DNA of 64,000 nucleotides from Bryobacteraceae bacterium (GCA_046331625.1 JAXLQL010000020.1:102452-166451); one strand, 5' to 3'. Counted from the first letter of the stretch, positions 10,294 to 44,766 are shown. Notes: generated by a model from the sequence alone, not told the origin. Numbers and translations: made by a program.

Positions 10294-10363
10294 GACGAAG
10301 TTCCGAGCATAGCGCACGCTACCGCATGCCGTAGGAAGTGTTCGGAAATCATGCCGGCTGTGC

Positions 10364-10406
10364 CGTGTAGGGCGGGCTTTAGCCAGCGCGGGACTTCAGT
10401 CCCGTT
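10364..10406. repeat. REP-like dual-hairpin element (variant copy)
   Basis: gtgtagGGCGGGCTttAGCCAGCGCGGGACTtcAGTCCCG, same family as the copy at 23099. Intergenic, between the ATP-grasp start and the rlmI end. Confidence 0.7.
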
Positions 10407-10474
10407 TCCGGCGTACGCACCAGCATCCGGCGGGACCTCGCAGCTTTTCAGCGAGATTGGACTACTCACTTCGC

Positions 10475-11626
10475 CTACAGCACTTCGACAATCGCGCACT
10501 TCAGATACAGCGTCTCTGGGACCGTCAGCAACACCGGATGATCCTGCGCCTGAATCCGCCGTTCGAGTACGCGCAGCGTGCGGCCCGCATCGAGCGCCGA
10601 CTGCGCGAGCATCTCGAGGAACGCGGCTTCGGAAACATGATGCGAGCAAGAGCAAGTCACTAGCACACCACCACGGTCGAGCAGCCGCAACGCCCGCTGA
10701 TTGATCTCGCGATATCCGCGCAGGGCCGGCTCCACGGTCTGGCGCGATTTCGCGAACGCCGGTGGATCGAGCACGATCGTGTCGAACCGCCTCCGCGCAT
10801 GCGCGAAGCTTGTCAAAAGATCGAACACATCGGACTCGCGGAATTCCACGTTCGCGATTCCGTTGGCATCGCGATTGGCCGCAGCCAGCTCGAGCGAGTG
10901 TGCCGAGCTATCCACCGCCAGCACATTCTCGCAGCGCGGAGCCATATGCAGCGCGAACCCGCCGCTGCACGTGAAGCAATCGAGCGCCTGTCCGCGTGCC
11001 CATCCGGCAGCCGCCAAATAGTTCTCGCGCTGATCGAGGAACACGCCGGTCTTTTGCCCTTCGAGTAGGTCCGCTCGCCAGCGGAGCCCGTTCATGCTCA
11101 CTTCGAGCGGGGCGGGCAACTCGCCCCGCAGCACCGACTTCTCGAGCGGAAGCGACTCGAGCTTCCGCACCGCCGCATCATTGCGCGCCACGATTGCTCG
11201 CGGCGAGAAGAGCGATTCGAGCGCTTCCACGATCCAGCCGGACGCGCGATCCATGCCTTGGTCGAGCGTCTGGATCACGAAGCAATCGCCGTAGCGGTCG
11301 ACGATCAAGCCGGGCAGCAGATCGCCTTCCGCGTGTACCAGCCGATAAGCCTCCGAGTCGCGCACCACGCGGCGCCGATGCGCCTCCGCGGCTTCGATCC
11401 GAGCACGGTAAAACGCGGCGTCCACCGTGACCGCACTGGCCGCAAGCATTCGCAGCGTGATCTGCGAAGTGGAGCTGTAGTGCGCCACGCCGAGCGCTCG
11501 CCCGCGCTGGTCATGCACTGTAACGGCGTCTCCGGCGGCGGCGTTGCCTCGATCGGCGATGTCGCTCGAGAACACCCACGGGTGCCCGGAGGCGATTCGA
11601 TCGGCGCCCTTGCGCGTGACCTTCAT
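10475..11626 (-). CDS. rlmI: 23S rRNA (cytosine-C5)-methyltransferase RlmI-family (PUA domain plus class I SAM methyltransferase)
   Basis: N-terminal PUA-like region ([18 protein letters not shown]), a SAM-binding motif ([13 protein letters not shown]) and a catalytic Cys region (DPPAFAKS...VTCSCSHH). Confidence 0.85.
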
Positions 11627-13416
11627 CGCTGATTCGACTTGAGGATCTTCTTCCGCAACCGGATCGAGTGCGGTGTGATCTCCACCAATTCGTCGTCGCG
11701 GATGAATTCGATGGCTTGCTCGAGGTTGAGCAACCGCGGCGGTACCAGCCGGATCGCTTCGTCGGCCGTGGAGGAGCGCATGTTGGTCAGCTTCTTCTCC
11801 TTCACGATGTTCACGTCGAGATCGTTGGCGCGCGAGTTCTCACCGACGATCATGCCCTCGTAGACTTCGGTGCTCGGCACGATGAAGATCTCACCGCGCT
11901 CCTGCAAATTCCAAATCGCGTACGCGGTGCCTTTGCCCGGCCGGTCCGACACGAGCGATCCCGTTGGGCGCTGCGGAATGTCGCCCTGCCACTCGATGTA
12001 TCCGTGAAACAGCGAGTTCATGATAGCCGTACCCTTGGTGTCAGTGAGCATCTCGCTGCGCAAGCCGATCAGCCCGCGAGAAGGCACATGGAACTCGAGA
12101 CGCACGCGGCCCGAACCATGATTGATCATCTTCGTCATCTTGCCCTTGCGCGTGCCCATCTTCTCCATGACGACGCCGACGTATTGTTCGGGGCAATCGA
12201 CGGTCAACATTTCGAGCGGCTCATTGATCTTGCCGTCGATGGTCTTGGTGAGGATCTCGGGCTTGCCCACCGCCAGTTCGTAGCCTTCGCGCCGCATCAT
12301 TTCAATGAGGATCGCCAGTTGCAACTCGCCGCGACCCATCACCTTGAACGCATCGGGACCACCCGCTTCTTCCACCTTGATCGACACGTTGGTGAGCAGC
12401 TCTTTGTCGAGCCTGTCGCGCAGATTGCGCGACGTGACGTAGGTGCCTTCGCGGCCGGAAAATGGCGACGTGTTGATGGTGAACGTCATCGCGATGGTCG
12501 GCTCATCGATCTGGATGCGCGGCAGGGGAACGGGCGTCTCCACGTGCGAGACCGTGTCGCCGATGGTGATGCCTTCCACGCCCGCGATCGCCAACACATC
12601 GCCGGGGATTCCGCGCGTCTCTTCCACGCGCTTCAAGCCTTCGAACGAGAACAGCTTGGTGATGCGCGTCTTCTGCACTGCGCCATCCACCTTGCAGATG
12701 CTCACTTCGTCGCCGAGATTCAGCGTGCCGGAAAACACACGGCCGATGGCGAGGCGGCCGAGGTAGTCGTTGTAGTCGAGGTTGGCGACGAGGAGTTGCA
12801 GCACCGCGGCGGGATCGCCTTCGGGTCCGGGGATGTGCTTGATGATCGTGTCGAAGAGCGGCCGCAGGTCCGCCGATTCGTCTTCGGGCTTGTACTTGGC
12901 GATACCTGCTTTGCCGTTGGTGTAGACGATCGGGAAGTCGAGTTGGTCTTCGGTTGCGTCGAGATCGATGAACAGGTCATAGATCTCGTTGAGCACTTCC
13001 TGGATGCGCGCGTCAGGGCGGTCGATCTTGTTGATCACCACGATCGGCGTGAGCCGCGCTTCGAGCGCTTTCATGAGCACGTAGCGCGTCTGCGGCAGCG
13101 GACCCTCGCTCGCATCCACGAGGAGCATGACGCCGTCGACGATCTTGAGCGCACGCTCCACTTCGCCGCCGAAGTCGGAGTGGCCGGGCGTATCGACGAT
13201 GTTGATCTTGACGTCGTGATAGCGGACGCCGGTGGTCTTGGCCAGGATGGTGATGCCGCGCTCGCGTTCGAGCTCATTCGAGTCCATGACGCGTTCGGCC
13301 ACCGATTCGTTGGCGCGGAAGATGCCGCTCTGGCGGAGCATCGCGTCGACCAGCGTAGTCTTGCCGTGGTCGACGTGCGCAATGATAGCGATGTTGCGGA
13401 TTTGGGGATTACGCAT
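11623..13416 (-). CDS. typA: translational GTPase TypA/BipA
   Basis: 597 aa. G1 [11 protein letters not shown]2/G3 DTPGHSDF, G4 NKID, and EF-G-like domains throughout. There is a 4-nt overlap with the rlmI start. Confidence 0.95.
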
Positions 13417-29436: not shown

Positions 29437-29913
29437 TTCGTTCCTCCTCCTCCATTGTTAGCGGACGCGACTGCATGACTCACTAGGCAGCGTTACCTAT
29501 TTGCAGTACCATCCCCGTACTAAAGCCGGGAAGTACCGGACCATTGCCCGGTCGCTGGCCGAGTACCGGCGAGCAAGCGCCGACGGGCAGGCAGAGCCTC
29601 CCGAAAGCGTTCAGGGCTATTGGTGGATGATCCTCCGGGGCATGACGGGCGTCACTGGGGCTGTTCAGTCAGAAGGGTGTGGGGCCTGTTGGCAAGCTCC
29701 CGCCCTTTGGATCCCACAATCGGGGACCGCTACTCCTCATTAAGGAGCCGTGTTTCCAGTTTGATCGGATCCGCCGCCGATGTCAACTGGCTGTTGTAGT
29801 GGGCCTTGCGTCCGAGCCTGCTGCCTGACTCCTGTTGCCTGAGTTGATGGTCTGAGAGCTTCTTGTACTATCCTTCAGTCTCTTCGCCAGCGGGCGAAAA
29901 TTTCAGCCCCAGC

Positions 29914-29964
29914 GTGTGGAGCAGGCGTCAGCCGGCTTCAGGCTGCGCTTGGGACTCGAGTCCC
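29914..29964. repeat. REP-like element (variant with a perfect GGGACTCGAGTCCC palindrome)
   Basis: gtgtggaGCAGGCgtcagccggcttcAGGCTGCGCttGGGACTCGAGTCCC. Confidence 0.6.
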
Positions 29965-30023
29965 TCTGTCAAATACCGCAATCCAGCAGAGTTCCCACCT
30001 CGTAACTTCGACTAAGAGGGTTT

Positions 30024-30064
30024 TTGTAGGGCGGGCTTCAACAGCCCGTGGCTAAAGTCGCGTG
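30024..30064. repeat. REP-like element (degenerate copy)
   Basis: ttgtagGGCGGGCTtcaacAGCCCGtggctaaagtcgcg. The first hairpin is conserved and the second is degenerate. Confidence 0.45.
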
Positions 30065-30237
30065 GGCCGCGTTGCGAGCGCCCAGGTCTGGGGATGTCGC
30101 CAGATTCAAGGCGTGGCCAGAGACGCAATGCGGGCCATTTCGAAGGAACCGCAACGAAGCAGATGGCCCCATGCCACCGCAACCCTCTGGACGGCCGGGG
30201 TTTGTGCCCATCATGCTTCGTTGCTCGTCGCTCGAGA

Positions 30238-30266
30238 TGGGCAGCGCGGGACTCGAGCCCCGCCTC
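30238..30266. repeat. REP-like half element (second hairpin only)
   Basis: gggcaGCGCGGGACTCGAGCCCCGCc. Confidence 0.5.
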
Positions 30267-30306
30267 CGAAACCAGCACCCACTCCTGGACCTTCTACGAA
30301 ACCTCA

Positions 30307-30696
30307 ATGCCAACCGTATCCGGCATCGACACAGCAGTGTCGGTCCACCGGATCGCCGTGTGGCATAACCACGGCCTGATCCCCGTGGAGATCGCGCACA
30401 AGGTCGGCCACATCTCGCTCGTGCAGGTCCACGCAGCGCTTGCTTACTATCACGCCAATCAAGATGAGATCGACGAGGATCACGCGGAGACAGAGGGCAT
30501 CGCCGAGGCGCTCGAGGAGGCCAGGTGCATCTCGATGGCCTTGGTCGTGCGCGTCTCGTCGAGCGTTCCGCCAGTGGCGATGCAGCCAGGGCTGCAGGCC
30601 TGCGCGGGACTTCAGTCTCGCTGCCCATACTCCGCGCCCAAGTCCTCCCGCACGCACTTCACGCCCGCCGCCGACGCCCGCTGTCGAGGCCCGTGA
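30307..30696 (+). CDS. small hypothetical protein with a DUF433-like C-terminal motif (possible orphan antitoxin-like HTH protein); its 3' end runs into REP-like repeats
   Basis: ATG at 30307 (MPTVSGIDTAVSVHRIAVWHNHGLIPVEIAHKVGHISLVQVHAALAYYHANQDEIDEDHAE...). The ...AALAYY...EID block resembles the DUF433 C-terminus. There is no stop until 30696, and the tail overlaps the REP copy at 30589-30626, so the true 3' end is doubtful. Confidence 0.3.
   Translation: MPTVSGIDTAVSVHRIAVWHNHGLIPVEIAHKVGHISLVQVHAALAYYHANQDEIDEDHAETEGIAEALEEARCISMALVVRVSSSVPPVAMQPGLQACAGLQSRCPYSAPKSSRTHFTPAADARCRGP
30589..30626. repeat. REP-like element (variant)
   Basis: GCAGCCagGGCTGCAGGCCTGCGCGGGACTtcAGTCTCGCtgccc: stacked palindromes GCAGCC/GGCTGC and GCAGGCCTGC, then the GCGGGACT hairpin. 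Confidence 0.55.
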
Positions 30697-30732
30697 AGAC
30701 ATCCCTGTCCCTACATCAACACCTGCCATGCC

Positions 30733-30783
30733 GTGTGGGGCAGGCTTCGGCCGACTTCAGCCTGCGCGGGACTCGAGCCCCGC
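30733..30783. repeat. REP-like dual-hairpin element (long-loop variant)
   Basis: GTGTGGGGCAGGCTtcggccgacttcAGCCTGCGCGGGACTCGAGCCCCGC. Confidence 0.7.
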
Positions 30784-30833
30784 TATCGAGCGTTGCGCTT
30801 TACTCCAGCCGGTCAGCGATATCCTAGAAAGAC

Positions 30834-32364: not shown

Positions 32365-33777
32365 TCAACGGCGCTTTCCGCCGCGACACAGCAGCAGTTC
32401 GCTGTCGAGCGCCTTTTCGAAGCGCCGCTCCGTGCGCTCTACTTGCCCCGCGGACGAATTGAAGTAGAACGCCACAATGACATGATCATTGGCGAACGCT
32501 TCACCGATCTTCCAGGACTGCTCGGGTGAGAATCCCCACGAGACCAACAGCGATGGAATCGCGAGTGGGCCGATTCCAGGCAGTTGCCATTCTTCCGCCG
32601 CTCCGTAGAGCCAGAGCCGCTCGTAGGGTGTGGCCAAACCCGGCGCCAGGGCCACCGTGCCCGGCCGTTTACCAGGATCGAATAGGCTCGCTTCGCATTG
32701 GCGCCCGAACCCGACCACACCGGCCAGCGGGTCGCGGCTCACGCAACCCACCCGCACGCCCGCGTTGCCGGCGGCAAGCTTCGCGATTTGCGCCGGATCC
32801 CACCGGTCTTTGGCAATCGCCGCGACGGCAACACGTACCGCGGGATCGGGCGGGTACATGGCGACGAGACCCGCGACCGATTCCGTCCAATTCAGGTAGG
32901 CGACTTCCTTGGCGTGCGCCAGATAGGCGAGGTTGGCTGCGTTGAACAAGAGCGTGGGCCGCCTCGATCCCGCACCGCCAGCCGCGAGAACTTGGTCCCA
33001 CAAATCTCGGGCAACGGCGGCCGAGGGGCAAGTCCTCAGCACCGCAGTTCCGAGTGAATATGGCCACTCGTTCCTACCCGCCGGGGCGAATGCAGGAACG
33101 GCGAACGAAAGCGCCTGAACACCCTTGGGCAGCCACAATCGGGCCGCTGCTGCCTGAACCTGCTCAGCGGTGGAGTAGGCGGGACGCAACGCAGCCAGGC
33201 GGCGCCAGAACCACTCGCCGCGCTGGCGCTTTCTCTCGGCCTCGACGAACGATGCAATCCGCCGATCGAGCGAGGAAGCTTGTGACGCAATGGCCCGAAG
33301 CCGCTCTTCGTCTCCGTCTTCCACCATCGCCAGCCTGACTTCCCGCTTGACTCTTCCGGCCAAGCCAACGGCATCCTTCTCCCATGCATCCAGTTCTCCC
33401 TCGATTCCGTTCTCGAGCGCCGGAAGAACCTTCGCCGCTAATTCCTGAAGCAATTGCTCGGCTCGAGGCTGGCGCGGCGATTGCTCCCGCAAGGGATCGA
33501 CACCAGGCGGGAGCAGCGCCAGCAGACGCCGCCGCAAGGCATCGGCTTTCTCCGGATCGGCAGTAACGGAATAGAGCTTCGGAGGGCGGTTCGCGGGCCG
33601 CTTGTCGTCTCGAGCCGCAGCCGCTGAACTCACGCAGCCCTCGTTTTCGAGGTCAGCCAGCGGCCGGTAAACTTGGCTCGGCGCCAAGCCTGAGTCCGCG
33701 CACAGGTCATTGACCGTGAAGCGTTCCAGGCGCAACACGCTCGTCAGAACTCGTACCTGGGTACTGTGTGACGCCAT
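32365..33777 (-). CDS. hypothetical protein, N-terminal winged-HTH-like region plus a large uncharacterised C-terminal domain (470 aa)
   Basis: The N-terminus VRVLTSVLRLERFTVNDLCADSGLAPSQVYRPLADLENEGCV looks like a MarR/PadR-type wHTH. I recognise no family in the rest. It is the last gene of a three-gene minus-strand operon. Confidence 0.55.
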   Translation of the reverse strand: MASHSTQVRVLTSVLRLERFTVNDLCADSGLAPSQVYRPLADLENEGCVSSAAAARDDKRPANRPPKLYSVTADPEKADALRRRLLALLPPGVDPLREQSPRQPRAEQLLQELAAKVLPALENGIEGELDAWEKDAVGLAGRVKREVRLAMVEDGDEERLRAIASQASSLDRRIASFVEAERKRQRGEWFWRRLAALRPAYSTAEQVQAAAARLWLPKGVQALSFAVPAFAPAGRNEWPYSLGTAVLRTCPSAAVARDLWDQVLAAGGAGSRRPTLLFNAANLAYLAHAKEVAYLNWTESVAGLVAMYPPDPAVRVAVAAIAKDRWDPAQIAKLAAGNAGVRVGCVSRDPLAGVVGFGRQCEASLFDPGKRPGTVALAPGLATPYERLWLYGAAEEWQLPGIGPLAIPSLLVSWGFSPEQSWKIGEAFANDHVIVAFYFNSSAGQVERTERRFEKALDSELLLCRGGKRR

Positions 33778-33830
33778 GGCTTGAACTACTTATCTTCAAT
33801 TTTGAAGATAACGCATTCGGAACGGCGGCG

Positions 33831-34853
33831 TCAATCCGGCAGCGCGCCACTCCGCACCTGCGCCCATGCGAGCAGGCGCGCGTGAACGTCATTGACATCC
33901 ACAGCCTTGCCGCAATCGCCGCATAGGAGCTCATGTGCCTCTGCGGTTCGCCGCTGCTTGGCCAATCCGAAAAGCGCCGACGCCACCAGTTGGTTCTCCT
34001 CGCCGTCCCACCGTTTTGCGTCCCCGAGCCAGTCGAGCAAGAACCGCGCCAAGCACCGGGGGAACTCGCACAGGCGGAGCCACCAATGCGCTTGCCGGCC
34101 TCGCGGCGAATCGGAGGCGGTTGTCGAAACAGCGGCCACGCTCGCCTGATAGGGCCATCGTTCCCGGCCGGCCTCGATGTAGGCCAGCGCCACTTTGAGA
34201 AGGAAGTGTTCCGATAGTACGGACTCCTCGTCGTCCCAAACCGGGAACTGATGCGAGACGTATTCGTGCAGGAACTCGAACTCGAGATTGAGCGCCGACA
34301 TCAGGCTGCCTCTCGCTTCCCCAGCTTGCACCAGAATCGAATCGCCTTCGAACGACACGTCGAGCGGTCCGGAGCCATCGCGGACTCCGAACCGAATCGG
34401 CACCGCCTTTCTCTTTCGCGCGCGCCGCGCCGCGACGTCGCCTCCCCAGTCGGACAAGCAAGTGCGATAGGTGTCGAAGGCTTGGCGGTTCCACCGGTCG
34501 ATAATCGCCGATGCGCTCTCCGCCGTGAGATCACTGGCCGCACCTGCAATCTCGCTGAGTACGGCGCGCACGCTGGAGCCCGCCCCGAAGCGCTCCGCCT
34601 CTGCACGCACTGAGTCCGCTGCGCTTCTCAGATAGGCTTCGGTGGAATGGATCTCGTTCTCAGCCAGCGGCGTGAAGCAACGCTCGTCCAGTTTCGCCAG
34701 CAGATCGAGGGCGTCGTAGCGGTGATCCTCCGATTGCAGGGCCTCGGCCAATTGACCTATTCGGCTGATGAATAGATCGGCGTACAGGACTGACGCCTCG
34801 AACAGTGGGAAGCGGTATCCACCGGCCCGCTGCCCATGCGATGCTTGGCTCAC
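33831..34853 (-). CDS. hypothetical protein (340 aa), middle gene of the three-gene operon
   Basis: Clean ORF with a protein-like composition. Its ATG overlaps the stop of the upstream small gene by 4 nt (34850-34853). No recognisable family. Confidence 0.55.
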   Translation of the reverse strand: MSQASHGQRAGGYRFPLFEASVLYADLFISRIGQLAEALQSEDHRYDALDLLAKLDERCFTPLAENEIHSTEAYLRSAADSVRAEAERFGAGSSVRAVLSEIAGAASDLTAESASAIIDRWNRQAFDTYRTCLSDWGGDVAARRARKRKAVPIRFGVRDGSGPLDVSFEGDSILVQAGEARGSLMSALNLEFEFLHEYVSHQFPVWDDEESVLSEHFLLKVALAYIEAGRERWPYQASVAAVSTTASDSPRGRQAHWWLRLCEFPRCLARFLLDWLGDAKRWDGEENQLVASALFGLAKQRRTAEAHELLCGDCGKAVDVNDVHARLLAWAQVRSGALPD

Positions 34854-35275
34854 GCACGCCGCTTCGCTTGCTTCTTCTTGGCTGATGCCTTCTTCGCGGC
34901 GGCCTTCTTCTTGGCTGGCGGTTTGGCTCCCACGCCGAGGAACTGCTTGGCCTTGGCCTGCATGTCCGGAAAGCGATTGGTCACGTAGGTAAGCGACTCG
35001 CGTACGAAGAACGCGACCGCGCCCGTCTTGATTCCGGAAATCACTTCCGGCTTGTGGATGAACTCGACAATGATGGCGAGCACATCGGGCGTGGCCGGAA
35101 AGCCTTCCTTGCGGCGCACTGCAACTCGGGTGTTCGGGTACTTGGTCGAAACGGTGTTCGCCAGTTCGGCCGAACTCTTCCTCAGAGCGGCGACTGCTTT
35201 CGAAACGGGTATGTTCGGGTCAAGCGAACGCAGCTCGATTTCGACGCGGATCGGCGAGGCAACCGTCGAAGGCAT
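34850..35275 (-). CDS. small hypothetical protein (141 aa) with a histone-H1-like Lys/Ala-rich C-terminal tail
   Basis: The C-terminus is GAKPPAKKKAAAKKASAKKKQAKRRA. The gene starts only 13 nt downstream of the TonB-dependent receptor stop (35288) and is the first gene of the three-gene set. Confidence 0.5.
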   Translation of the reverse strand: MPSTVASPIRVEIELRSLDPNIPVSKAVAALRKSSAELANTVSTKYPNTRVAVRRKEGFPATPDVLAIIVEFIHKPEVISGIKTGAVAFFVRESLTYVTNRFPDMQAKAKQFLGVGAKPPAKKKAAAKKASAKKKQAKRRA

Positions 35276-35287
35276 CCCCCGACTGTA

Positions 35288-38200
35288 TCAAAACTCCACT
35301 ACCGCACCCAACTGCAAGAACCGCTGCCCCTGAGCGGGCGTCACATACTGCGCGAACGCGGGACTCGTCACGTTCCGCGTCACGTCTTGAAACGAGTGAT
35401 GATTGAATACGTTGTAGATCTCACAGCGTAGCTTTACTCGCATGCGCTCGGTGATCGCGACATTCTTGTACACGTTCCAATCGAAATTCGTCGACCCCGA
35501 GATCCGATGCGTGTTACGCCCGAGCGAACCGAACCGGCCGAGCAGCGGCTGCGACAATCCGAGTGACGCCGCATATGCCGATATGCGCCGGCCCGCCACC
35601 GGATCGTTCGTCACGCCTTGCGGCGCGTTCGCGCTCCCGGCGGGTTGCGGATCGAATCCGAAAGGTCCCGCCACATTCGGCCGAATGAATCCGCCCACCA
35701 TGATCGCGGAAGGATTGGCAACGCCCAGCCGCGGTCCGGACTCGAACGAAACCGGGAATCCCGAGCGGAACTGCGAGATCCCGGATGTTCCCCAGCCCGC
35801 GACCAATCGCCGTAGCCAGCCGCTCGCGATGTGCTTGCCCCACGGCAGTTCCCACACGTGCGTGATCACGGTGCGATGCGGAATGTCGAAGCCCGAAACA
35901 GAACGGTTCGCCCGCGTGTTGTTCGGATCCTGGAGTAGAGTGCTGTCATTCGGAATGGCAGTGAGGCCGTCGGACACGTCGTCGATCGACTTCGAGAACG
36001 TGTACGCCACCTGAATCGAATAGCCGCCGCGGAAGGGTCGTGTGGCCAGCATCTCGAACGCGTGGAAGTTCGAGTTGGCGGAACTGTCGAAGTAGTTCAC
36101 CGTGTTGAAGCGTGGATCGGTGCGTGTGGCAAAGCGCTGCGTGGCTCCGGTCATGTTGTTGTACGAGGTGAGGAACTGCGCCGCACGCGCCGCTTCGTCG
36201 GCGAGGTCCACCGCTGGAGCAGGGAGCGCCGCGTTGAGATTCACCTGCCGCGCTCGCTGCAAGTAGTTCGCCTTGGTGCCCACGTAACCGAGCTTGAGCA
36301 CGATGTTCTCGGGCAGTTGGCGCTGCACGGAGAAGCTCCACTGGAACACTTGCGGATTCTCGAGGTTCGGATCGATCACCGGATTCATGTCGCCGTAATT
36401 GAGCACATCATTCCGCACACGCCCGAGGAGCGACGACGCTTCGCGTTGAATCGCGGCGGTTCCCGCAATCAGGCTCGCCCAACTGTTCGCGCCCGCGAAC
36501 GATCCCGTCCCCGTCAGATTCTGCGTGACAATGAACGGCGCGAGGAAACGCTGGTTGGTGAGCGGGTTCATGAAATTGAAGTCCGCGACCAACCCGGCTC
36601 CGGCGCGAACCACCGTCTTGCCCGCGCCCGGATTCCACGCGATCCCCACTCGCGGTTGCGGATACAGATTGGTGCGCACCATCGGCTTGCCGAGCGAGAA
36701 GCATCCGAACGCGCCGGTACCGGCGGCGCCCAAACTGTCCCGGCACGAGAAGTCGAGGTTCGAGCTGATTGCGTTCACTTCGGTGATTGGTCCGAAGTAC
36801 TCGAGCCGGAACCCGAGGTTGAGCGTGAGATTCGGCCGCAGGCGATAGTCGTCCTGCACGAACATGCCGCCGATCCACTGGCGATGTCCGCGCGCCGAGC
36901 TCCCGAACCGCTGGGTGTAGGCGTTGGGCCGGCCGGCGGCGAAGTCATCCCAGTTGAGAAACGTATACTGCCCGCGCGTTTGCGCGTCGAAGAAGCTATT
37001 GCCCTGGTAGCGATAGAAATCGGCGCCGGCTTTGACGTTGTGGGCACGCCGCATCCAGTTGATGGTGTCGCCGTACTGGAACGTGTTCTGCACGCGGCCC
37101 TGCGGACCCGAAGTGGAGTGTCCGAACTCGGCGATTTGGTTGTTCGAGAAAATGATGCGCGGGCCGAGCGGCGTGACCGTGGTGTCGATCGAGAAGATCG
37201 GCGAAGTGCGGCCGAAGCCGCCACGAAATTCGTTCACCACGGTGGGCGAGAAGATGTGCGTCTCATTGACGTTGAGGCTATAGGGCGTGTTGGTGGAAGC
37301 CAGACCGAAGTTGGCGAGATTGGTGCCTTGGAAGGTGTTCGTGGAACTGGTGCCTTCGTTGTGCGATTGACCGTAGCGGCCGTAGATCGAGTCGCGCCCG
37401 GAGATCTGGTGGTCAATGCGCGCCGAGTATTGCCAGAACTCGGTCCTGGCCGGCGCGTTCTGCTGCACCGTTCCAAACGTGCCGCTGTCGGTGGTGGCGG
37501 CAGGCAGCTTGTAGAACTCGAGCAGTCGCTTCGACGTGGGATCGGTCACTTGCGCGATCATCGATTGCGTGGGCACCTGGGCCACGCGCGCCGCGCCGGA
37601 CCCACGAATCGGGAACAATTCGCTCGAAACAAAGAAATGGGTTTTGTTCTTGATCACCGGACCGCCCAACACGCCCCCGAACTCGTTGGCTCGCGTCACG
37701 GTCGGCGCGCCGGAGCGATCGAACCAGTCGCGCGCGTTGAAGTAGTCATTGCGGAAGTATTCGTACGCTTCGCCGTGGATCTCGTTGGTGCCGCTTTTGG
37801 TGATGTACTGCACCTGCGAGCCCGAATTGCGTCCGAACTCGGCGCTGAAGTTGTTGGTGATCACCTTCACCTCTTTGATCGACGAATAGTTCAGCGGACC
37901 ATTGTTGCTCGAGCCGGTACCCGCCACGGAGATGTCAGTGGCCGTGATGTTGTCGATGGTGATGTTGTTCGCGCGCGCTCGATTGCCGTGCGAAATGAAG
38001 CTGCCGGAGTTGAATCCGCTGGGCGCGGGAACGACACCCGGAAGGGTGGCCGCGATCAGATTCGGATTCCGGGTCACTGGGATTTCCTGCACCTTTTTCG
38101 TTTCGAACGATTCCTGAATTTGCGCGCTCTGCGTGTCGAGCGGGTTGGCGGCATCGGTCACCGTCACCTGCTCGGTGACCTGGCCCACTTCGAGTTTCAG

Positions 38201-38506
38201 ATTCACCGACGTGATTTCCGCGCTACGCACGCCGGCGGAGGCTACGGCCTTGCGGAATCCTGCGGCTTCCACGGCCACGCTATAGTCGCCGATTTTCAAC
38301 AGCGGAAACGCATAGCGCCCCTCGGCATCGCTCGACATGGACCGGCGTTCGCCGGTCTCGAGACTCGTCAGTGTAACTTTGGCGCCTGGAACCGCCGAGC
38401 CCGAGGGATCGGAAACCAACCCTCGCACTTCGCCCGTAATTTGCGCCAGTAATGGCGAACAAAAGGCGAAACAAAGCGCACACCCAATTACGACAGCCTT
38501 ACCCAT
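35288..38506 (-). CDS. TonB-dependent receptor, Oar-like (second copy)
   Basis: Start at the ATG at 38506 (MGKAVVIGCALCFAFCSPLLAQ, a signal peptide). It has a CarboxypepD_reg-like N-domain (ITGEVRGLVSDPSGSAVPGAKVTLT) and a large barrel, and ends ...LGAVVEF with a terminal Phe. The 123-codon upstream in-frame extension is rejected. Confidence 0.9.
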   Translation of the reverse strand: MGKAVVIGCALCFAFCSPLLAQITGEVRGLVSDPSGSAVPGAKVTLTSLETGERRSMSSDAEGRYAFPLLKIGDYSVAVEAAGFRKAVASAGVRSAEITSVNLKLEVGQVTEQVTVTDAANPLDTQSAQIQESFETKKVQEIPVTRNPNLIAATLPGVVPAPSGFNSGSFISHGNRARANNITIDNITATDISVAGTGSSNNGPLNYSSIKEVKVITNNFSAEFGRNSGSQVQYITKSGTNEIHGEAYEYFRNDYFNARDWFDRSGAPTVTRANEFGGVLGGPVIKNKTHFFVSSELFPIRGSGAARVAQVPTQSMIAQVTDPTSKRLLEFYKLPAATTDSGTFGTVQQNAPARTEFWQYSARIDHQISGRDSIYGRYGQSHNEGTSSTNTFQGTNLANFGLASTNTPYSLNVNETHIFSPTVVNEFRGGFGRTSPIFSIDTTVTPLGPRIIFSNNQIAEFGHSTSGPQGRVQNTFQYGDTINWMRRAHNVKAGADFYRYQGNSFFDAQTRGQYTFLNWDDFAAGRPNAYTQRFGSSARGHRQWIGGMFVQDDYRLRPNLTLNLGFRLEYFGPITEVNAISSNLDFSCRDSLGAAGTGAFGCFSLGKPMVRTNLYPQPRVGIAWNPGAGKTVVRAGAGLVADFNFMNPLTNQRFLAPFIVTQNLTGTGSFAGANSWASLIAGTAAIQREASSLLGRVRNDVLNYGDMNPVIDPNLENPQVFQWSFSVQRQLPENIVLKLGYVGTKANYLQRARQVNLNAALPAPAVDLADEAARAAQFLTSYNNMTGATQRFATRTDPRFNTVNYFDSSANSNFHAFEMLATRPFRGGYSIQVAYTFSKSIDDVSDGLTAIPNDSTLLQDPNNTRANRSVSGFDIPHRTVITHVWELPWGKHIASGWLRRLVAGWGTSGISQFRSGFPVSFESGPRLGVANPSAIMVGGFIRPNVAGPFGFDPQPAGSANAPQGVTNDPVAGRRISAYAASLGLSQPLLGRFGSLGRNTHRISGSTNFDWNVYKNVAITERMRVKLRCEIYNVFNHHSFQDVTRNVTSPAFAQYVTPAQGQRFLQLGAVVEF

Positions 38507-38878
38507 GAAAGAATCTCCCAGGTACCATCGTGCAGTTGATCCGTCAAACGTGACATCGGTTTGCGGGGAACCGTGCGTCAGGCGTGGCGAAAACGTTGCA
38601 AACGGGGGCGAATGTGCTCCCAGCAAAATATTTGGATTGTTTTCATCAAGATCCCGCCGAGGGGTCTTGCAAGTTCCGGCGCTCCGCTGCATAATCGTCC
38701 CGTGCGCAAACTCACCTGTTCCGTTCGGCGCGAGCCGCTGACGGCGCTGGTATAGAAACCCGCCCGGCCTGGCGCACACCCTTCCCTCCACGAACAACCG
38801 AGCTTCTCTTCGCCGGGACCGTGCGTGCGCGCGTTCAAACGGCCGATAGTCCGTGAGAAGCGCTCGAGGAGGCATCCC

Positions 38879-40687
38879 ATGTTTACCGTTCCCACGATGG
38901 TTGCGATCGTCGTGTGTTTGCTCGCGTTGCTGTTATTCGCCGCGAGTTTTGTTTCGATCAAAGAGAATCAGGTCGGCGTAGTGGTGAAGAAGTTCTCGCC
39001 CGGCAAGAAACTGCCCGAGGGCCGCGTCGTCGCGCTCGAAGGCGAAGCCGGATATCAGGCGCGTACGCTCGGCCCCGGCATTTACTTCGGTTACTGGCCG
39101 TGGCAGTACAAAGTGGAGAAGCATCCGCTCACGGTGATCTCGCCCGGCTTCATCGGGCTGGTGATCGCCAATGACGGCTCGCCCATGCCGGTGGACCGCG
39201 TGCTCTGCACCGCCGTCGACTGCGACAACTTCCAGAATGCCGAGACTTTCCTGCGCGGCGGCGGACAGAAGGGCCGCCAGTCAGCGATCCTGACCACGGG
39301 CTACTATCGCATCAATCCGGTGCTGTTCAAGGTGGTCTATGACACGCCGATCCGGCGGATCGAGTCGAACAAGGTCGGCATCCTGACGGTTCTCGACGGC
39401 GCTCCCATGCCCGCCGGACAGATGGCGGCCAAGCCCGTCGCGGGCCACGACAATTTCCAGAGCCCCGATGCGTTCATCCGCGCGGGCGGCTGCCGCGGCT
39501 TGCAGGAGCAGATCATCCTGGCCGGCAGCTACAACGTGAACCCGTGGTTCGCCGAGATCGAAGAGCATGACCTGCTCGACGTTCCGATCGGCTACGTGGG
39601 CGTGGTGGTGAGCTTTGTCGGCGACGATTCGCGCGACATCTCGGGCGATCAGTTCACGCATGGCAACATCGTGCGGCGCGGCGGCAAGGGCGTGTGGGAC
39701 GAGCCGCTGTATCCGGGCAAACATCCGCTCAATCCGCGCGTGATGAAGGTGGAACTGGTGCCCACCACGAACATCGTGCTCAACTGGGCGAGTGCGCGAA
39801 CCGAAGCGCACAAGCTCGACGAGAAGCTTTCCACGATCACGGTGCGTTCGATCGACGGCTTCACGTTCAATCTCGACGTCTCGCAGATCATCAACATCGG
39901 CGCCACCAAGGCTCCGTGGGTGATCTCGCGCGTGGGCAGCGTGCGGAACCTGGTGAATCAGGTGCTGGAACCGATCATCGGCAACTACTTCCGCAACAGC
40001 GCGCAGAACTACACGGTGCTCGATTTTCTCGCCAATCGCGTGGAGCGGCAGGCCGACGCTCGGTCGCACATCACGGCGGCCGTGCAAGAGTACGACGTGC
40101 AGAGCGTGGATACGCTGATTGGCGACATCACGCCTCCGCAGGAACTGATGGCCACGCTCACCGCGCGTAAGCTCGCCGAGGAGCAACGCAAGACCTTCGC
40201 TACCGAGGAACAGACGCAGCGCACGCGGCAGGAGCTCGAGCGGCAGAAGGCGCTCGCCGAGAAGCAGAAGGAGTTGGTGAACGCGGAGCAAGATGTCCGC
40301 GTGGCCGAGATGCGCGCCAAGGCCGCCGTCGAGTCCGCCAATGGCGACGCGCAGGTGCAAGCGCGGCGTTCGGAAGGCGAGGCGCTCGCCAAGAAGCGCG
40401 TCGGCCAGGCCGAAGCCGAAGTGGTGGCCGTGAAGGGTCTCAACGAGGCCGAGGCGATCCGCGCGATCGGCCAAGCCAAGGCCGATGCGTACAAGCTGGG
40501 CCAGGAGGCGATGGGCGGCAACTACGCCATGCTGCAGATCTTCTCGGTGCTGGCCGAAAAGGGCATTCGCTTGACGCCCGATGTGCTGGTGTCCGGTGGG
40601 GCTCAGGGTGGTTCGGCGTCGGAGGCGATGCTCGCGATGCTGCTGCGCCAGACGGTGGAAAGCGCGCGGCCGCCAGCGAAGCAGTAA
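38879..40687 (+). CDS. flotillin-like SPFH (band 7) domain protein with a long coiled-coil C-terminus (YqiK/FloT-like)
   Basis: The ATG at 38879 is preceded by GAGGAGG with a 6-nt spacer. There is an N-terminal TM helix and an SPFH region. An EA-rich coiled coil follows (ELERQKALAEKQKELVNAEQDVRVAEMRAKAAVE...), the flotillin signature. Confidence 0.8.
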   Translation: MFTVPTMVAIVVCLLALLLFAASFVSIKENQVGVVVKKFSPGKKLPEGRVVALEGEAGYQARTLGPGIYFGYWPWQYKVEKHPLTVISPGFIGLVIANDGSPMPVDRVLCTAVDCDNFQNAETFLRGGGQKGRQSAILTTGYYRINPVLFKVVYDTPIRRIESNKVGILTVLDGAPMPAGQMAAKPVAGHDNFQSPDAFIRAGGCRGLQEQIILAGSYNVNPWFAEIEEHDLLDVPIGYVGVVVSFVGDDSRDISGDQFTHGNIVRRGGKGVWDEPLYPGKHPLNPRVMKVELVPTTNIVLNWASARTEAHKLDEKLSTITVRSIDGFTFNLDVSQIINIGATKAPWVISRVGSVRNLVNQVLEPIIGNYFRNSAQNYTVLDFLANRVERQADARSHITAAVQEYDVQSVDTLIGDITPPQELMATLTARKLAEEQRKTFATEEQTQRTRQELERQKALAEKQKELVNAEQDVRVAEMRAKAAVESANGDAQVQARRSEGEALAKKRVGQAEAEVVAVKGLNEAEAIRAIGQAKADAYKLGQEAMGGNYAMLQIFSVLAEKGIRLTPDVLVSGGAQGGSASEAMLAMLLRQTVESARPPAKQ

Positions 40688-40752
40688 GCGCGATCACAGA
40701 TGCGGCCGGGGTTCGGCGCCCCGGCCCTTCGAAAGTTTCTCATCCGGGCTTG

Positions 40753-40776
40753 ACTGTATTAGAAAACTAGTACACT
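40753..40776 (+). promoter_or_regulatory. imperfect inverted repeat (ACTGTATTAG-aaaa-CTAGTACACT, 8 of 10 positions complementary) overlapping a TTGACT -35-like hexamer; candidate GntR operator/promoter
   Basis: Seen directly in the sequence, 10 bp upstream of the GntR start codon. GntR/YtrA-type regulators commonly autoregulate through such palindromes. Confidence 0.3.
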
Positions 40777-40786
40777 ATAGATCCAG

Positions 40787-41194
40787 ATGGCCGCAGCGAA
40801 ACCACAGCCGCAACCCTTCGCCTTCGGGCTCGATCCTCACTCGGGCGTGCCTGTTTATCGCCAGTTGATCGATCAGGTGCTGAGTGCGATCGCGAGCGGC
40901 GCGTTAAGGCCTACCGATCGCCTGCCCACGGTGCGGCGGGTGGCGGTGGACCTCGCCATCAACCCCAACACCGTCGTGCGTGCGTACAAAGAATTGGAAA
41001 TTCGCGGGGTGCTCGAAACGCAGCAGGGCACCGGCACCTTCATCGCGGAGAAGAAGGTCCGGCCGGATGAACTGGCCCGGCGGCGGCGCCTGGAACAAAT
41101 TGTCACCGATACGGTTTCGCGCGCCGCAGCCGAGGGCTTCATGGTCGGCGAGTTGATCGAGATCCTCCGCGAGATGAAACAGGAAAGGAAATAA
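40787..41194 (+). CDS. GntR-family transcriptional regulator (short YtrA-like subfamily)
   Basis: HTH_GntR block VPVYRQLIDQVLSAIASGALRPTDRLPTVRRVAVDLAINPNTVVRAYKELEIRGVLETQQGTGTFIA, with a short C-terminal extension typical of YtrA-like members. Confidence 0.85.
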   Translation: MAAAKPQPQPFAFGLDPHSGVPVYRQLIDQVLSAIASGALRPTDRLPTVRRVAVDLAINPNTVVRAYKELEIRGVLETQQGTGTFIAEKKVRPDELARRRRLEQIVTDTVSRAAAEGFMVGELIEILREMKQERK

Positions 41195-41199
41195 GCAAC

Positions 41200-42132
41200 A
41201 TGCCCATTACCGTACTGCCGGGTTTCCCGCAGAAGCCGTCGTCGAACCAACTCGCCATGAGTCCGCTGGGAGCGGCGGCATTCGGCGCGGTGTTGTTGGT
41301 GGGGATGGCCCTGACCGCGTCACTCAAGACACCGGTCTTCTTCGTCGCGTCGGTTCCGTGCGCGATCCTTTGTCTATTCGGCCTTCGCCAAGTGGATCAG
41401 TGGGACAAAGCCATCGTGCTCCGGCTGGGTAAGTTCCGCGGCCTGCGCGGACCCGGGCTGTTCACCATCATCCCCGTGATCGATTCCGTTTCGCGCGTCG
41501 TGGACCAGCGGATCCGCGTCACGGGCGTCACGGCCGAAGCCGCGCTCACACGCGACACCGTACCCGTAAGCGTCGATGCCATCGTCTATTGGGTGGTGTG
41601 GGACGCCGAGAAAGCCGTGCTCGAAGTGGAAAATTTCACTGACGCGATCACGTTCGGCGCGCAGACCGCACTGCGCGAGGCGATCGGCGCGCACGAACTG
41701 GGCGACCTCATCGCTCGCCGTGACGAGGTGGGCAAAGAGCTTCAGAAGATTCTCGACGAGAAGACGAATCCGTGGGGTGTGACGGTGCAGTCAGTGGAGA
41801 TCAAGCAGGTGATCATTCCGCAGGCGCTGGAAGACGCGATGTCGCGCAAGGCGCAGGCGGAGCGGGAGCGCCAGGCGCGGATCCTGTTGAGCACGGCCGA
41901 GGCTGAGATTTCGCAGAAGTTCGCCGAGGCTTCGGCGTTGTACCAGAACAATCCGGTGGCGTTGAATCTGCGTGCGATGAACCTGCTGTATGAGGCGATG
42001 AAGGAGCGCGGATCAATGGTGGTGATTCCGTCGCAGGCTGTGCAGTCGCTGGGGGTGGGGAACGTATTGGGGTTGGCGTCGATGGGTGGGGCTTCGGCGG
42101 GTCCGGGCGCCGAGGGGCAGGCTGGGAAGTGA
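41200..42132 (+). CDS. SPFH/band-7 (stomatin/slipin-like) membrane protein
   Basis: Two N-terminal TM segments then an SPFH core (VDQWDKAIVLRLGKFRGLRGPGLFTIIPVIDSV...VDAIVYWVV...), the stomatin-family signature. Confidence 0.85.
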   Translation: MPITVLPGFPQKPSSNQLAMSPLGAAAFGAVLLVGMALTASLKTPVFFVASVPCAILCLFGLRQVDQWDKAIVLRLGKFRGLRGPGLFTIIPVIDSVSRVVDQRIRVTGVTAEAALTRDTVPVSVDAIVYWVVWDAEKAVLEVENFTDAITFGAQTALREAIGAHELGDLIARRDEVGKELQKILDEKTNPWGVTVQSVEIKQVIIPQALEDAMSRKAQAERERQARILLSTAEAEISQKFAEASALYQNNPVALNLRAMNLLYEAMKERGSMVVIPSQAVQSLGVGNVLGLASMGGASAGPGAEGQAGK

Positions 42133-42962
42133 AGCTTCTGGCGGCCGGGATGCTGCTCGCCTGGGTGGCGTTGTCGCAGCATCCCTTGCTCGACAGGATT
42201 TCGGGCGTAGATCTTTGGGACAATCCGCTCTCGGCGGAGGATCAGTCGCAGCTTTCGGCGCTACTGGGTGAGATTCCCAAGGGCTACATGGCGCCGCCTG
42301 CGCCGCGATACGTGTGGACGTCAAACCAGAGTGGGCGGACGCGCTACTTTGCGCTGCTTGCCGAAAGTGTGATGGTGATTCCGGGCGGATCCACGGCGCG
42401 CGTGGTGTTGTTAGACGCTGGAGGAAGACAGATTCTGGGGAGATCTTTCCAAACGGGCTGGCGGATGACGCCAGGGCGCGCCACCTTCCGGTACTCTCCG
42501 GGTCTCGGGCGGGATCTGGTCGCCCTCGACATGGAGAGATTTGCCAATGGCCGGAACATTGCGCGCGAGTACTTTGCCATCAGTGGCGACGATTTGCACC
42601 TCATCCGGCTCGAGGACGACAAACGCGAAGCCGTTCAGAACGACTGCGTCTATCCCAACTACGAGATCGGATTTGCGCCGCCGGCGAAGACTGTAGCGGA
42701 GTTCGTGCGGATGCTCGAGTCGAATGACAAGACCGAAGTGCTGGCTGCACTGGTTTTCCTCGGTGGGCGGCATCTCACCGATTCGAGGCGACTCGCCTTC
42801 GGGTACCGTGAAAGCGTGCATGCGCAGACATTTCGCACCGTGATTGCGGACGCTCGTATCCAGGATTTGATCGCACGCCACCGGAGATCGCAAAGCCAGT
42901 GGATCCGGCAGTATGCGGAACTCGCCGCTCGCGATCCGAGTGAGCGCCCGATGGAGCGGTAA
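42129..42962 (+). CDS. hypothetical secreted protein (277 aa)
   Basis: Its start overlaps the SPFH stop by 4 nt, and the N-terminus has a signal-like hydrophobic stretch (LLAAGMLLAWVAL). No family recognised. Confidence 0.5.
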   Translation: MKLLAAGMLLAWVALSQHPLLDRISGVDLWDNPLSAEDQSQLSALLGEIPKGYMAPPAPRYVWTSNQSGRTRYFALLAESVMVIPGGSTARVVLLDAGGRQILGRSFQTGWRMTPGRATFRYSPGLGRDLVALDMERFANGRNIAREYFAISGDDLHLIRLEDDKREAVQNDCVYPNYEIGFAPPAKTVAEFVRMLESNDKTEVLAALVFLGGRHLTDSRRLAFGYRESVHAQTFRTVIADARIQDLIARHRRSQSQWIRQYAELAARDPSERPMER

Positions 42963-43178: not shown

Positions 43179-43598
43179 TCATGCGGCGGCGGCCTGCGCG
43201 GCGGGCTGCGAGTCAGCGGCCGCGGCGTCGATGGCGTGATGATAGTCGCGGCTTTGGATGGTGCGAAAGAGGCGCGGCTCGCCGGTGGTGCGGACCACTT
43301 CGAGCGCGGCGCGGAGTCGCGTGGCGGGCGAGGCGTCTTTGGTGGCGAGGATGGCGGCGAGGGTGTCGAGCGCGGAGTCAGTGAGGTCGCGGAGGCGCTC
43401 GGCGATTTCCTGCGCGTGCAGGTGGCGGCCTTCGTTGATGGCGGCCTGGAAGCGGTTGTCGTGGCGGGTCCAGTCATGGACCGTGTCGCGGTGGACACCG
43501 GCGGCCTTGGCGGCGGCAGTTACGGTGCTGCCCGTGGCGAGGGCGTGCACGGCGGCGAGCTGTTTCGGCGACAGCGTGGAGAAGTCGGGAATGATCAT
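43179..43598 (-). CDS. small HTH-domain protein (transposase-OrfA or terminase-small-subunit-like DNA-binding N-terminus)
   Basis: LSPKQLAAVHALATGSTVTAAAKAAGVHRDTVHDWTR is a typical HTH_23/HTH_28-like motif. It sits at the edge of the ATPase-DUF4435 islet. Confidence 0.5.
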   Translation of the reverse strand: MIIPDFSTLSPKQLAAVHALATGSTVTAAAKAAGVHRDTVHDWTRHDNRFQAAINEGRHLHAQEIAERLRDLTDSALDTLAAILATKDASPATRLRAALEVVRTTGEPRLFRTIQSRDYHHAIDAAAADSQPAAQAAAA

Positions 43599-43815: not shown

Positions 43816-44766
43816 TTGTCGTTCCCGAAGCCGGATCTTCCAGACGATCCGGACGTGTTGGTGCTTGGGAGCCGGAACGGGGTAGGAAAGACGTCGGTGC
43901 TCGAGGCGCTCTCCATTGGCGCTTGGTTCCGCCTGTTTTGGACGGACGCGAAGCCCCAGGGCGTTCCTGAAGATGCTGCGCTCGACGCGTTTGTCCGGGC
44001 AGGAACAAGCAAGTTCGACCTCAGTTTGGACGGTGGCAGTCCGGCGACAGGCTGGCATGTTGCATACTCCACTGGTTCTTCTCCGTCTGCGTTTGGCTTC
44101 ACCGAAACACCGAAAATGAAGCTCAACGGTACTTCGTTTTCGCGGGACTTTAACCGGCTTCGCGGGAGAGATGTGAACCCGGTGTTGTTGCCTGGTCTCT
44201 TGCATTTCACTGGGTTCCGGCGCGTTCTCGAGGGAGACCTCGACATGGAGGACCTGGGTGGACGGCGGCAAGTGGTGATCGGTACGCCGCCCAGTATCTT
44301 CAAGGTCGATGCCGCGGAGGCGCTCATAGGAGCGGCTGGTGTATTCGAGAATTTCGCCTCTGCCGACTGGGTTCTCCGGGTGCGCCAGATCAACTCCCTC
44401 GTTGACCGCTATGCGGGCGGTGTAATCGAGAAACTCGCCACAAACCTCCACGGCTCGATCCGGCTGCGCGTCCGGGCCCGTGACTCCGCCGCCTCTCACG
44501 ACTTCGACGGACTCAGCTCCGGCCAAAAGGAAATCATTTCGACCCTCTACCTAATCTGGCGTCACACGCTCGACAATCCGAGCCTGGTTCTCATCGACGA
44601 ACCCGAGCTCCATCTCAATGCCGAGTGGCGCGTCGACTACGTGCGCATGCTCCATCGCATCGCGCCGCATAACCAATACATTCTTGCGACGCACTCGGAA
44701 GACATCTTCGCTTCGGTCGATCCGAGCCGCCGCATCATTCTCAATCCCGTCGCCGTGCCGGTATGA
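43816..44766 (+). CDS. OLD-family/AAA_15-21-type ABC ATPase (AriA-like); the true start probably lies upstream of the called TTG
   Basis: Walker A LGSRNGVGKTSVLEAL, ABC signature LSSGQKEIIS, Walker B LVLIDEPELHLN and H-loop ILATHS. The conserved N-terminal strand (IIRIHRLRIQNFKGIDDLEL) is in frame upstream of 43816. It follows a strong SD (AAGGGGAG at 43749-43756) but has no ATG, GTG or TTG, so a non-canonical ATA/ATC start near 43759-43768 or a sequence error is possible. Confidence 0.75.
   Translation: MSFPKPDLPDDPDVLVLGSRNGVGKTSVLEALSIGAWFRLFWTDAKPQGVPEDAALDAFVRAGTSKFDLSLDGGSPATGWHVAYSTGSSPSAFGFTETPKMKLNGTSFSRDFNRLRGRDVNPVLLPGLLHFTGFRRVLEGDLDMEDLGGRRQVVIGTPPSIFKVDAAEALIGAAGVFENFASADWVLRVRQINSLVDRYAGGVIEKLATNLHGSIRLRVRARDSAASHDFDGLSSGQKEIISTLYLIWRHTLDNPSLVLIDEPELHLNAEWRVDYVRMLHRIAPHNQYILATHSEDIFASVDPSRRIILNPVAVPV

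Follow-up and report, generated by a model that had tools for sequence, protein, structure and literature searches.

Several bacterial switches pair a metallopeptidase with a DNA-binding repressor. In IrrE/DdrO of Deinococcus, cleavage inactivates the repressor, and the promoters of radiation-induced genes share a conserved motif, RDRM (PMC6868357, PMC5552922). In CapP/CapH, which is conflict-associated, a metallopeptidase activated by single-stranded DNA cleaves a promoter-bound helix-turn-helix (HTH) repressor (10.1101/2022.04.27.489752; 10.64898/2026.05.16.725639). ImmA/ImmR of ICEBs1, which has relatives among phage and ICE immunity modules, is a switch made of a protease and an autoregulated repressor on horizontally acquired DNA (PMC8960796). 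Here we analyze a stretch of 64,000 nt from Bryobacteraceae bacterium (GCA_046331625.1 JAXLQL010000020.1:102452-166451; hereafter the window) that contains three adjacent minus-strand genes, designated g1, g2 and g3. We hold with middling confidence, by analogy with the systems above, that this trio is a self-contained, horizontally exchanged cassette that would work as a metallopeptidase-repressor switch. The three open reading frames (ORFs), reported in an initial annotation of the window, are present and have the following features.

34850..35275, minus strand: g1, small protein of 141 aa
33831..34853, minus strand: g2, 340 aa with a GTG start; zincin-like (gluzincin-type) putative metallopeptidase
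34251..34268, minus strand: codons of the HExxxH motif, H196-E197-Y-V-S200-H201; putative zinc-binding and catalytic site of g2
34209..34211, minus strand: codon of E215, candidate third metal ligand (gluzincin Glu), conserved in an S-E-G-Y-L motif at the start of the next helix
33778..33830, minus strand: g2-g3 intergenic region of 53 nt, with the g3 promoter and putative operator
33805..33834, minus strand: sigma-70-like promoter from a consensus scan; -35 TTGACG (33834-33829), 18-nt spacer, -10 TATCTT (33810-33805)
33790..33811, no strand assigned: perfect palindrome (10+2+10) in the sequence, TTATCTTCAA-AA-TTGAAGATAA; putative g3 operator
32365..33777, minus strand: g3, 470-aa winged HTH (wHTH) protein; putative autorepressor and putative g2 partner
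33553..33765, minus strand: wHTH DNA-binding domain of g3, approximately residues 5-75; matches Pfam TrmB, IclR, ArsR and MarR_2 at E ~1e-3, below the Pfam cut-off

Searches of Pfam, NCBIfam, PADLOC and PHROGs gave nothing above threshold for g1, g2 or g3, in keeping with the initial annotation, which had recognised no family among them. A word-index search of 5.8 billion clusters returned only self-matches, all hypothetical proteins of the Bryobacteraceae metagenome-assembled genome (MAG). An exhaustive phmmer (HMMER) scan of 1.84 billion representatives, in which the three proteins were joined as one query and matches were accepted at E<=1e-3, gave 96 matches of ~30% identity in three length-matched groups: g1-like (120-163 aa), g2-like (~300-370 aa) and g3-like (~470-610 aa). 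The trio families are singleton clusters, and there is a lesson for method here, in that the fast word-index search called the trio orphans and only the exhaustive hidden Markov model (HMM) scan revealed a conserved system. On the match-bearing contigs, genes for 347-aa and then 490-aa proteins are neighbours in L014/L015, and genes for 126-, 322- and 157-aa proteins are neighbours in L016; a metagenome scan with the g2 profile added 29 further loci. When HMMs of the three families were mapped onto six-frame ORFs of these loci, the order g1-g2-g3 on one strand was found in every locus long enough to show it (~30 independent loci, with 12 complete trios), and the idea that the trio forms a unit, raised in the initial annotation, holds up: the outcome named there as refuting it, a trio not conserved as a unit, is clearly contradicted.

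Spacing within the unit is not uniform. g1 and g2 form a translationally coupled pair: in the window the g1 stop overlaps the g2 start by 4 nt (GTGA), and the median distance between the two genes over 24 loci is 6 nt, with extremes of -20 and 85. A gap between g2 and g3 is present in all 27 loci in which it was measured (median 62 nt, range 17 to 167), and in the window it amounts to 53 nt and contains a promoter-like site and a perfect palindrome. Of the tight packing first described, the g1-g2 junction stood and the near-zero g2-g3 spacing did not, and the view of the locus as a single tightly packed operon gave way to one in which g3 has its own promoter and putative operator. In one lineage g2 and g3 are physically linked: they occur naturally fused in P0058 (828 aa), whose gene lies 20 nt downstream from the end of a g1-like gene. 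No fourth gene recurred when 104 flanking proteins from 17 loci were compared all-vs-all by BLAST. Trio carriers come from soil metagenomes, the one named source being the Bryobacteraceae MAG (Acidobacteriota). These results support the trio as a conserved, co-inherited unit whose families none of the four profile libraries searched contains; the cassette is real and rare, and it turns up repeatedly in soil bacteria.

The annotated frames of g1, g2 and g3 each have the best codon score of all six, and dN/dS between related locus pairs is 0.10-0.13 for g2, 0.11 for g3 and 0.24-0.47 for g1. Together with the confident structural model of g2 described below, these values argue that the trio consists of real genes. 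GC content at third codon positions is 0.70-0.75 in the trio, slightly lower than in five neighbouring genes compared (0.76-0.85).

g2, in which the initial annotation saw no recognisable motif, does contain one. Across 42 g2 family sequences, H196, E197 and H201 of the hexapeptide HEYVSH (residues 196-201) are invariant, and near-invariant positions include S200, E215 (kept in at least 90% of members), the WGG motif (G137), G178, F192, W206 and L218. The core motif reads F-x-[FL]-HE-[YH]-[LV]-SH-x-x-P-x-W...S-E-G-Y-L. An AlphaFold2 (AF2) model built from the 42 sequences has a predicted local distance difference test score (pLDDT) of 89.6 and a predicted template modelling score (pTM) of 0.89, while prediction from the single sequence gave a pLDDT of 43 and was unusable. 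The model comprises an N-terminal helical bundle, a three-stranded sheet (153-177), a helix (190-202) with HEYVSH, and a helix (212-228) with E215 at its start; in the motif region, block-mean pLDDT is ~95 up to residue 200 and 76 for residues 201-210. An HEXXH-type motif with two His residues and a catalytic Glu is thus placed on an alpha-helix in its HEXXXH variant, and the overall arrangement of beta-sheet, active-site helix and Glu helix resembles that of solved zincins (aminopeptidase N, BepA, Wss1 and DPP III). The modeled fold of g2 is that of a zincin (gluzincin-like), its putative HExxxH...E site is invariant, and E215 is probably the third metal ligand. Foldseek comparison of the model with PDB and BFVD gave nothing significant, and its weak matches include M61, selecase, IrrE, jannalysin and SprT-like proteins. 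Phmmer and profile searches of PDB sequences were uninformative for g1 and g2, with the g2 profile matching only designed helical bundles through its N-terminal region.

The extra residue in the g2 motif is no obstacle to this assignment because TldD, DPP III and the zincin-like domains of polyvalent proteins all use HEXXXH. In TldD, both His residues of HExxxH bind metal via a distorted helical turn (PMC5810440); the same hexapeptide, HEXXXH, is the active-site motif of DPP III (M49) (PMC5708649); and Iyer et al. described HEXXXH zincin-like domains in polyvalent proteins of phages and plasmids (PMC5512222). None of the three (TldD being the HExxxH subunit of TldD/E) matches g2 in sequence. 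DPP III is a large two-lobed exopeptidase, and TldD differs from g2 in its fold and in using Cys as third ligand, where g2 probably uses E215, 14 residues after H201. The DNA-dependent metalloproteases SprT/Wss1/Spartan and the minigluzincins (selecase, abylysin, jannalysin) differ from g2 in having HEXXH and in binding DNA themselves, and they have no counterpart of its large N-terminal helical bundle or its C-terminal helices; no DNA-binding motif was identified in g2 itself.

Assignment of g2 to Peptidase_M78/COG2856, the family of ImmA, IrrE and CapP, was considered and rejected. The window g2 has no Pfam match at E<=1, M78 is found in 0 of 42 members at E<=0.1, and the motif is HEXXXH. 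Nor is g2 adjacent to an XRE or cI-type HTH repressor, its partner g3 being a TrmB/MarR-like wHTH protein. The remaining Pfam peptidase families also match 0 of 42 members, the best hit being Tox-MPTase2 (E 0.089) in one member. With no member matching Peptidase_M78 or another Pfam peptidase, g2 is, judged by its sequence, a new remote zincin family outside the ImmA/IrrE/CapP family, and it would define a family with a rare HExxxH site.

The wHTH-like N terminus that had been noted in g3 is supported by family-wide matches: TrmB is found in 19 of 27 N-termini, IclR in 11 and MarR_2 in 8, each below the Pfam cut-off, and the g3 profile weakly matches the wHTH regulators PH1932, ArsR, MarR and PadR in PDB. 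g3 has, in this respect, the DNA-binding domain of a winged-helix regulator. Beyond it lie a helical/coiled-coil region, a tetratricopeptide repeat (TPR)-like region and a conserved C-terminal domain, for which profile comparison with PDB offered weak hints only (coiled coil at ~94-230, TPR at 264-335). In an alignment of 27 sequences, F20, Y69, W297 and G401 are invariant, and there is no invariant polar residue outside the wHTH. Because W297 and G401, the invariant residues outside the wHTH, are not polar, the C-terminal part looks non-catalytic and may be a sensor, partner-binding or oligomerisation domain. g3 variants with the same wHTH and unrelated, Pfam-less C-terminal domains of ~450 aa follow the g2 gene in several cases (L039 1592-3346, L045 2639-4315, P0047, P0096 and P0083), which suggests modular exchange of a sensor or effector part.

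The g2-g3 gap combines a promoter with a candidate site for g3. The -10 element TATCTT falls within the left arm of the 22-bp palindrome, which is unique in the window even at 3 mismatches (0 expected); the putative g3-binding target sequence is TTATCTTCAAAATTGAAGATAA. A consensus scan of 7.5 kb gave 2 such promoter sites, this one included, where 1.4 are expected, a count that is not significant, and the promoter/palindrome layout recurs in the same gap of other loci although the proteins are only ~30% identical. When 267 kb of loci were searched for the core TTATCTT-N8-AAGATAA with up to 2 mismatches, 21 of 23 matches fell in the g2-g3 gap (0.3 expected), and neither the operator core nor a shared motif was found upstream of g1. 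In subgroup 2, palindrome arms flank a TTGACA-17-TATAAT promoter (CTTATTC-TATAAT-...-GAATAAG), and the L035 operator is AACTTACA-TG-TGTAAGTT. Operator class varies with the predicted recognition helix: QVYRE occurs with TTATCTTC, QV[DIN]PQ with TTATATTC, Q[VA]YP[VI] with CTTATTC, QAYAQ with CTTAGTC, and QIEPQ with AACTTACA. This pattern fits co-evolution of g3 and its site and is also compatible with shared ancestry; a protein-operator pair with such matched variation could serve as an orthogonal repressor part. On sequence grounds, the wHTH gene g3 has a sigma-70-like promoter to itself, and the palindrome over the -10 element is essentially confined to that position, the arrangement of a palindromic operator at a regulated promoter, as in autoregulation.

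g1 has a conserved N-terminal domain of ~100 aa (SLDP...R55-x-E57-G-x-P60), with no match in Pfam or PDB, followed by a K/R-rich tail ending in KKKAAAKKASAKKKQAKRRA; its family comprises 11 distant relatives and ~20 copies in the loci. A DinI-like, RecA-filament-binding role was considered for g1 and set aside as a chance match, being sub-threshold (E 0.018, 21 residues), seen in the window g1 only and missing from 11 of 12 members. Most members have the K/R-rich tail at the C terminus. The clade of L023, L025 and L032 has its main lysine-rich stretch at the N terminus, and a short basic stretch can remain at the other end. The 141-aa length and histone-H1-like tail given in the initial annotation are correct for the window protein, and the tail is not a fixed feature of the family; the DNA-binding features proposed for the locus are supported by the g3 wHTH with its conserved putative operator and by the basic tail of most g1 members. 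The movable basic tail suggests non-specific nucleic-acid binding by g1.

In the switch that we propose, a g3 dimer would bind the palindrome and repress its own transcription. g2 would bind g3 and, on a signal, cleave it, or possibly cleave g1, thereby lifting repression or releasing an activity in the manner of IrrE/DdrO, CapP/CapH and ImmA/ImmR. g1 would be made in step with g2, and its basic tail might tether the protease to nucleic acid or relay a signal of that kind, for example foreign DNA or DNA damage. If this mechanism holds, the trio would be a fourth independently evolved case of a metallopeptidase that cleaves a repressor, built from families absent from the four profile libraries and including an obligatory third component.

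Comparison with the three known cases shows where the analogy holds. Like IrrE (PprI)/DdrO, a COG2856/M78 protein with an XRE repressor, the trio pairs a zinc-metallopeptidase-type protein with a putative DNA-binding repressor. DdrO is a ~130-aa XRE protein, whereas g3 is a 470-aa wHTH protein, helical and TPR-like, and g2 differs from IrrE in having HExxxH rather than HExxH and in the failure of all 42 members to match M78. The trio also has an obligatory third gene, shows no regulon sites, and is accessory rather than core. CapP/CapH offers a functional analogy for what may be a nucleic-acid-triggered protease switch. There is no detectable sequence relationship, g1 has no counterpart, and CapP/CapH stand upstream of an immune operon, the cargo under their regulation (that of CBASS, in which anti-phage signaling is based on cyclic oligonucleotides, and others), whereas the trio has no conserved cargo and an operator only at the g3 promoter. 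In ImmR/ImmA the protease gene shares a transcript with the repressor gene, which precedes it. The trio differs in gene order and promoter layout, its families are unrelated to ImmA/ImmR by sequence, and it has neither consistently linked mobility genes nor viral or plasmid relatives.

Several observations weigh against the switch as formulated. The palindrome is found only at g3's own promoter, and no regulated output promoter was found. g3 is last in order and separately promoted, unlike ImmR/ImmA, and it is far larger than the partner repressors of the IrrE/CapP/ImmA type and not of the XRE type. The P0058 fusion would agree just as well with a g3 that is no substrate of the protease but a subunit that targets or regulates it. 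Finally, the basic g1 tail is not universal, being N-terminal in one clade and missing in L031, L035, L041 and L046.

The distribution of the palindrome also bears on whether the trio could be a host stress regulator in the manner of IrrE/DdrO, in which g3 would repress a dispersed regulon through the palindrome and g2 would inactivate g3 after DNA damage or another stress, a role in physiology and not in conflict. The logic is the same, with a palindromic motif in the repressor gene's own promoter just as ddrO carries an RDRM in its own, and both the housekeeping neighbours at many loci and the strong purifying selection agree with it. However, the palindrome occurs once in the window and, across the 267 kb of loci, essentially only in the g2-g3 gap. 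The cassette is missing from sister genomes whose flanks are 85-95% identical and from the nearest relatives of the window found, one copy is broken by insertion sequence (IS) elements, and such a patchy distribution is atypical of a core stress regulon. We consider this explanation unlikely.

The preferred reading, a horizontally exchanged switch cassette, draws on the genomic context of the trio. The flanks surveyed are heterogeneous: most genes there serve metabolism or housekeeping, and 2 integrases, 2 DDE transposases and 2 Oar-like receptors are also present. In sister genomes of the L016 carrier, flanks of 85-95% nucleotide identity surround a locus from which the trio is absent: homology with L016 stops ~100 nt upstream of g1 and returns 7.7 kb later, and the sister-genome cargo in this island interval includes an rve integrase, IS1595, Fic and a methyltransferase. 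The nearest genomes found for the window by folK (54-58% identity) have no trio. Because the flanks differ everywhere and sister genomes of one carrier are without the cassette, the trio is an autonomous accessory cassette. In L016 itself, a decaying copy (9012-13312), the g3 homologue is in three pieces, interrupted by two IS elements (with DDE_3 and DDE_Tnp_1 transposases), while g1 and g2 are intact. The L016 sister L047 (14117-16793) has, within a few kb of the variable island, genes for a RecA_N/MT3502_N protein, an IMS (Y-family polymerase)-like protein and a DnaE2-type polymerase, which look like an imuA-imuB-dnaE2 mutagenesis cassette; L049 and L050 have the DnaE2-type gene in common with L047, and the two matching genes there have no Pfam match.

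A small, autonomous and horizontally distributed cassette could also be a toxin-antitoxin or addiction module with three parts, or else an ImmR/ImmA-like immunity region left orphaned when an integrative element lost its mobility genes. Pairing of a protease with an HTH protein is typical of mobile-element immunity modules, two flanking proteins strongly match Phage_integrase, and in L028 a truncated g2 lies beside a weak integrase-like ORF. These points are countered by the lack of any integrase, conjugation or phage gene that is consistently adjacent, and by searches of 2.9 million viral contigs and 72,556 plasmids, which gave no relative. Exact palindrome matches in viral contigs (n=9) were dismissed as chance, as they lie in AT-rich DNA of 30-47% GC without trio genes. 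In classical type II toxin-antitoxin systems the operator stands before the whole operon, whereas here it stands before g3 only. The classical type II form itself, a two-gene operon autoregulated by the antitoxin, was rejected, the trio having three genes and an operator before the last gene only, with none upstream of g1. We regard a toxin-antitoxin or orphan immunity origin as very unlikely.

More weight attaches to a role in anti-phage defence or abortive infection, which overlaps the switch in parts and differs from it by its specific claim of role: g3, perhaps with g1, would sense foreign or damaged DNA, and the g2 protease would be the effector, or the activator of one, degrading host or phage proteins and thereby halting infection. 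The families are rare, fast-diverging singletons; the cassette can lie in an island whose cargo varies, with integrases and IS elements in sister genomes; some clades have exchanged the C-terminal domain of g3, as is frequent for sensor domains; and HEXXXH zincins are known in conflict proteins of phages and plasmids. Clear defence genes lie near some loci, namely type I restriction genes (R and S subunits), a type IV restriction enzyme, a bacterial gasdermin (bGSDM) with a subtilase, PtuB and PbeA. A CHAT-like protease, a 1179-aa protein (L033 9068-12607; PADLOC SAVED_CHAT, 4e-16), is encoded directly downstream of g3 in L033 only. As to the co-occurrence with defence islands raised in the initial annotation, some loci have defence genes nearby and one is a variable island; housekeeping or metabolic functions account for the majority of the 104 flanking genes. 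PADLOC-DB v2 matches none of the trio, apart from a weak Csa3 wHTH match to g3 (E 7e-4), and 9 of 10 large flanking genes tested, mostly immediately adjacent, are without a match. The window trio is flanked by a TonB receptor and by folK/ruvB, and there is no obvious toxic effector in the trio. The defence or nucleoid-associated label suggested in the initial annotation is, on this balance, tentative, and defence proper is a tentative possibility.

Within the switch reading, the biological role of the trio would most likely be one in conflict, whether through defence, through abortive infection or through addiction. A more specific version, which we put forward as possible but doubtful, is that the trio is an undescribed conflict system in which a new HExxxH zincin protease would be held on DNA by two partners that bind nucleic acid, a self-repressing wHTH/TPR-like sensor and a small protein that is basic-tailed in most members, and in which foreign or damaged DNA would release or activate the protease. 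If so, it would establish both a defence family and a peptidase family that are new. To our knowledge, the mobile elements and defence systems of Acidobacteriota are little characterised.

Around the trio, the window contains genes of familiar kinds. The placement of g1 just after an Oar-like TonB-dependent receptor, as initially described, is correct: the TGA of a 1195-aa ORF (OMP_b-brl_4 at 1e-162, plus CarboxypepD_reg and Plug) lies 12 nt upstream of g1. Because only 12 nt separate the two and the consensus scan found no promoter-like site between the receptor stop and g1, g1 may be co-transcribed with the receptor gene. The receptor ORF (35288-38875) is listed from its most upstream ATG; a signal-peptide-like stretch, MGKAVVIGCALCFAFCSPLLAQ, begins near residue 124 and the first domain near 150, which probably puts the true start ~370 nt further downstream than 38875. 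On the other side, folK and ruvB, both named in the initial annotation, lie downstream of the trio and are convergent with it. Upstream of ruvB, a stretch of ~1.4 kb (29437-30833) has no confident gene assignment, its best ORF (30094-30696, 200 aa) having no Pfam match and an unusually high GC content at second codon positions. No tRNA or Rfam elements were found in the window. A 139-aa HTH protein with a weak match to Sf6 small terminase (43179-43598, minus strand) adjoins a 316-aa AAA_21/AbiEii-type ATPase (43816-44766, E 1.4e-12); the pair may form a mobile or defence element of its own, ~8 kb away from the trio. At 38825-42962, divergent from the receptor gene, a cluster encodes two SPFH/Band-7 proteins, of 620 aa and 310 aa, that are separated by a GntR regulator and followed by a 277-aa Pfam-less protein.

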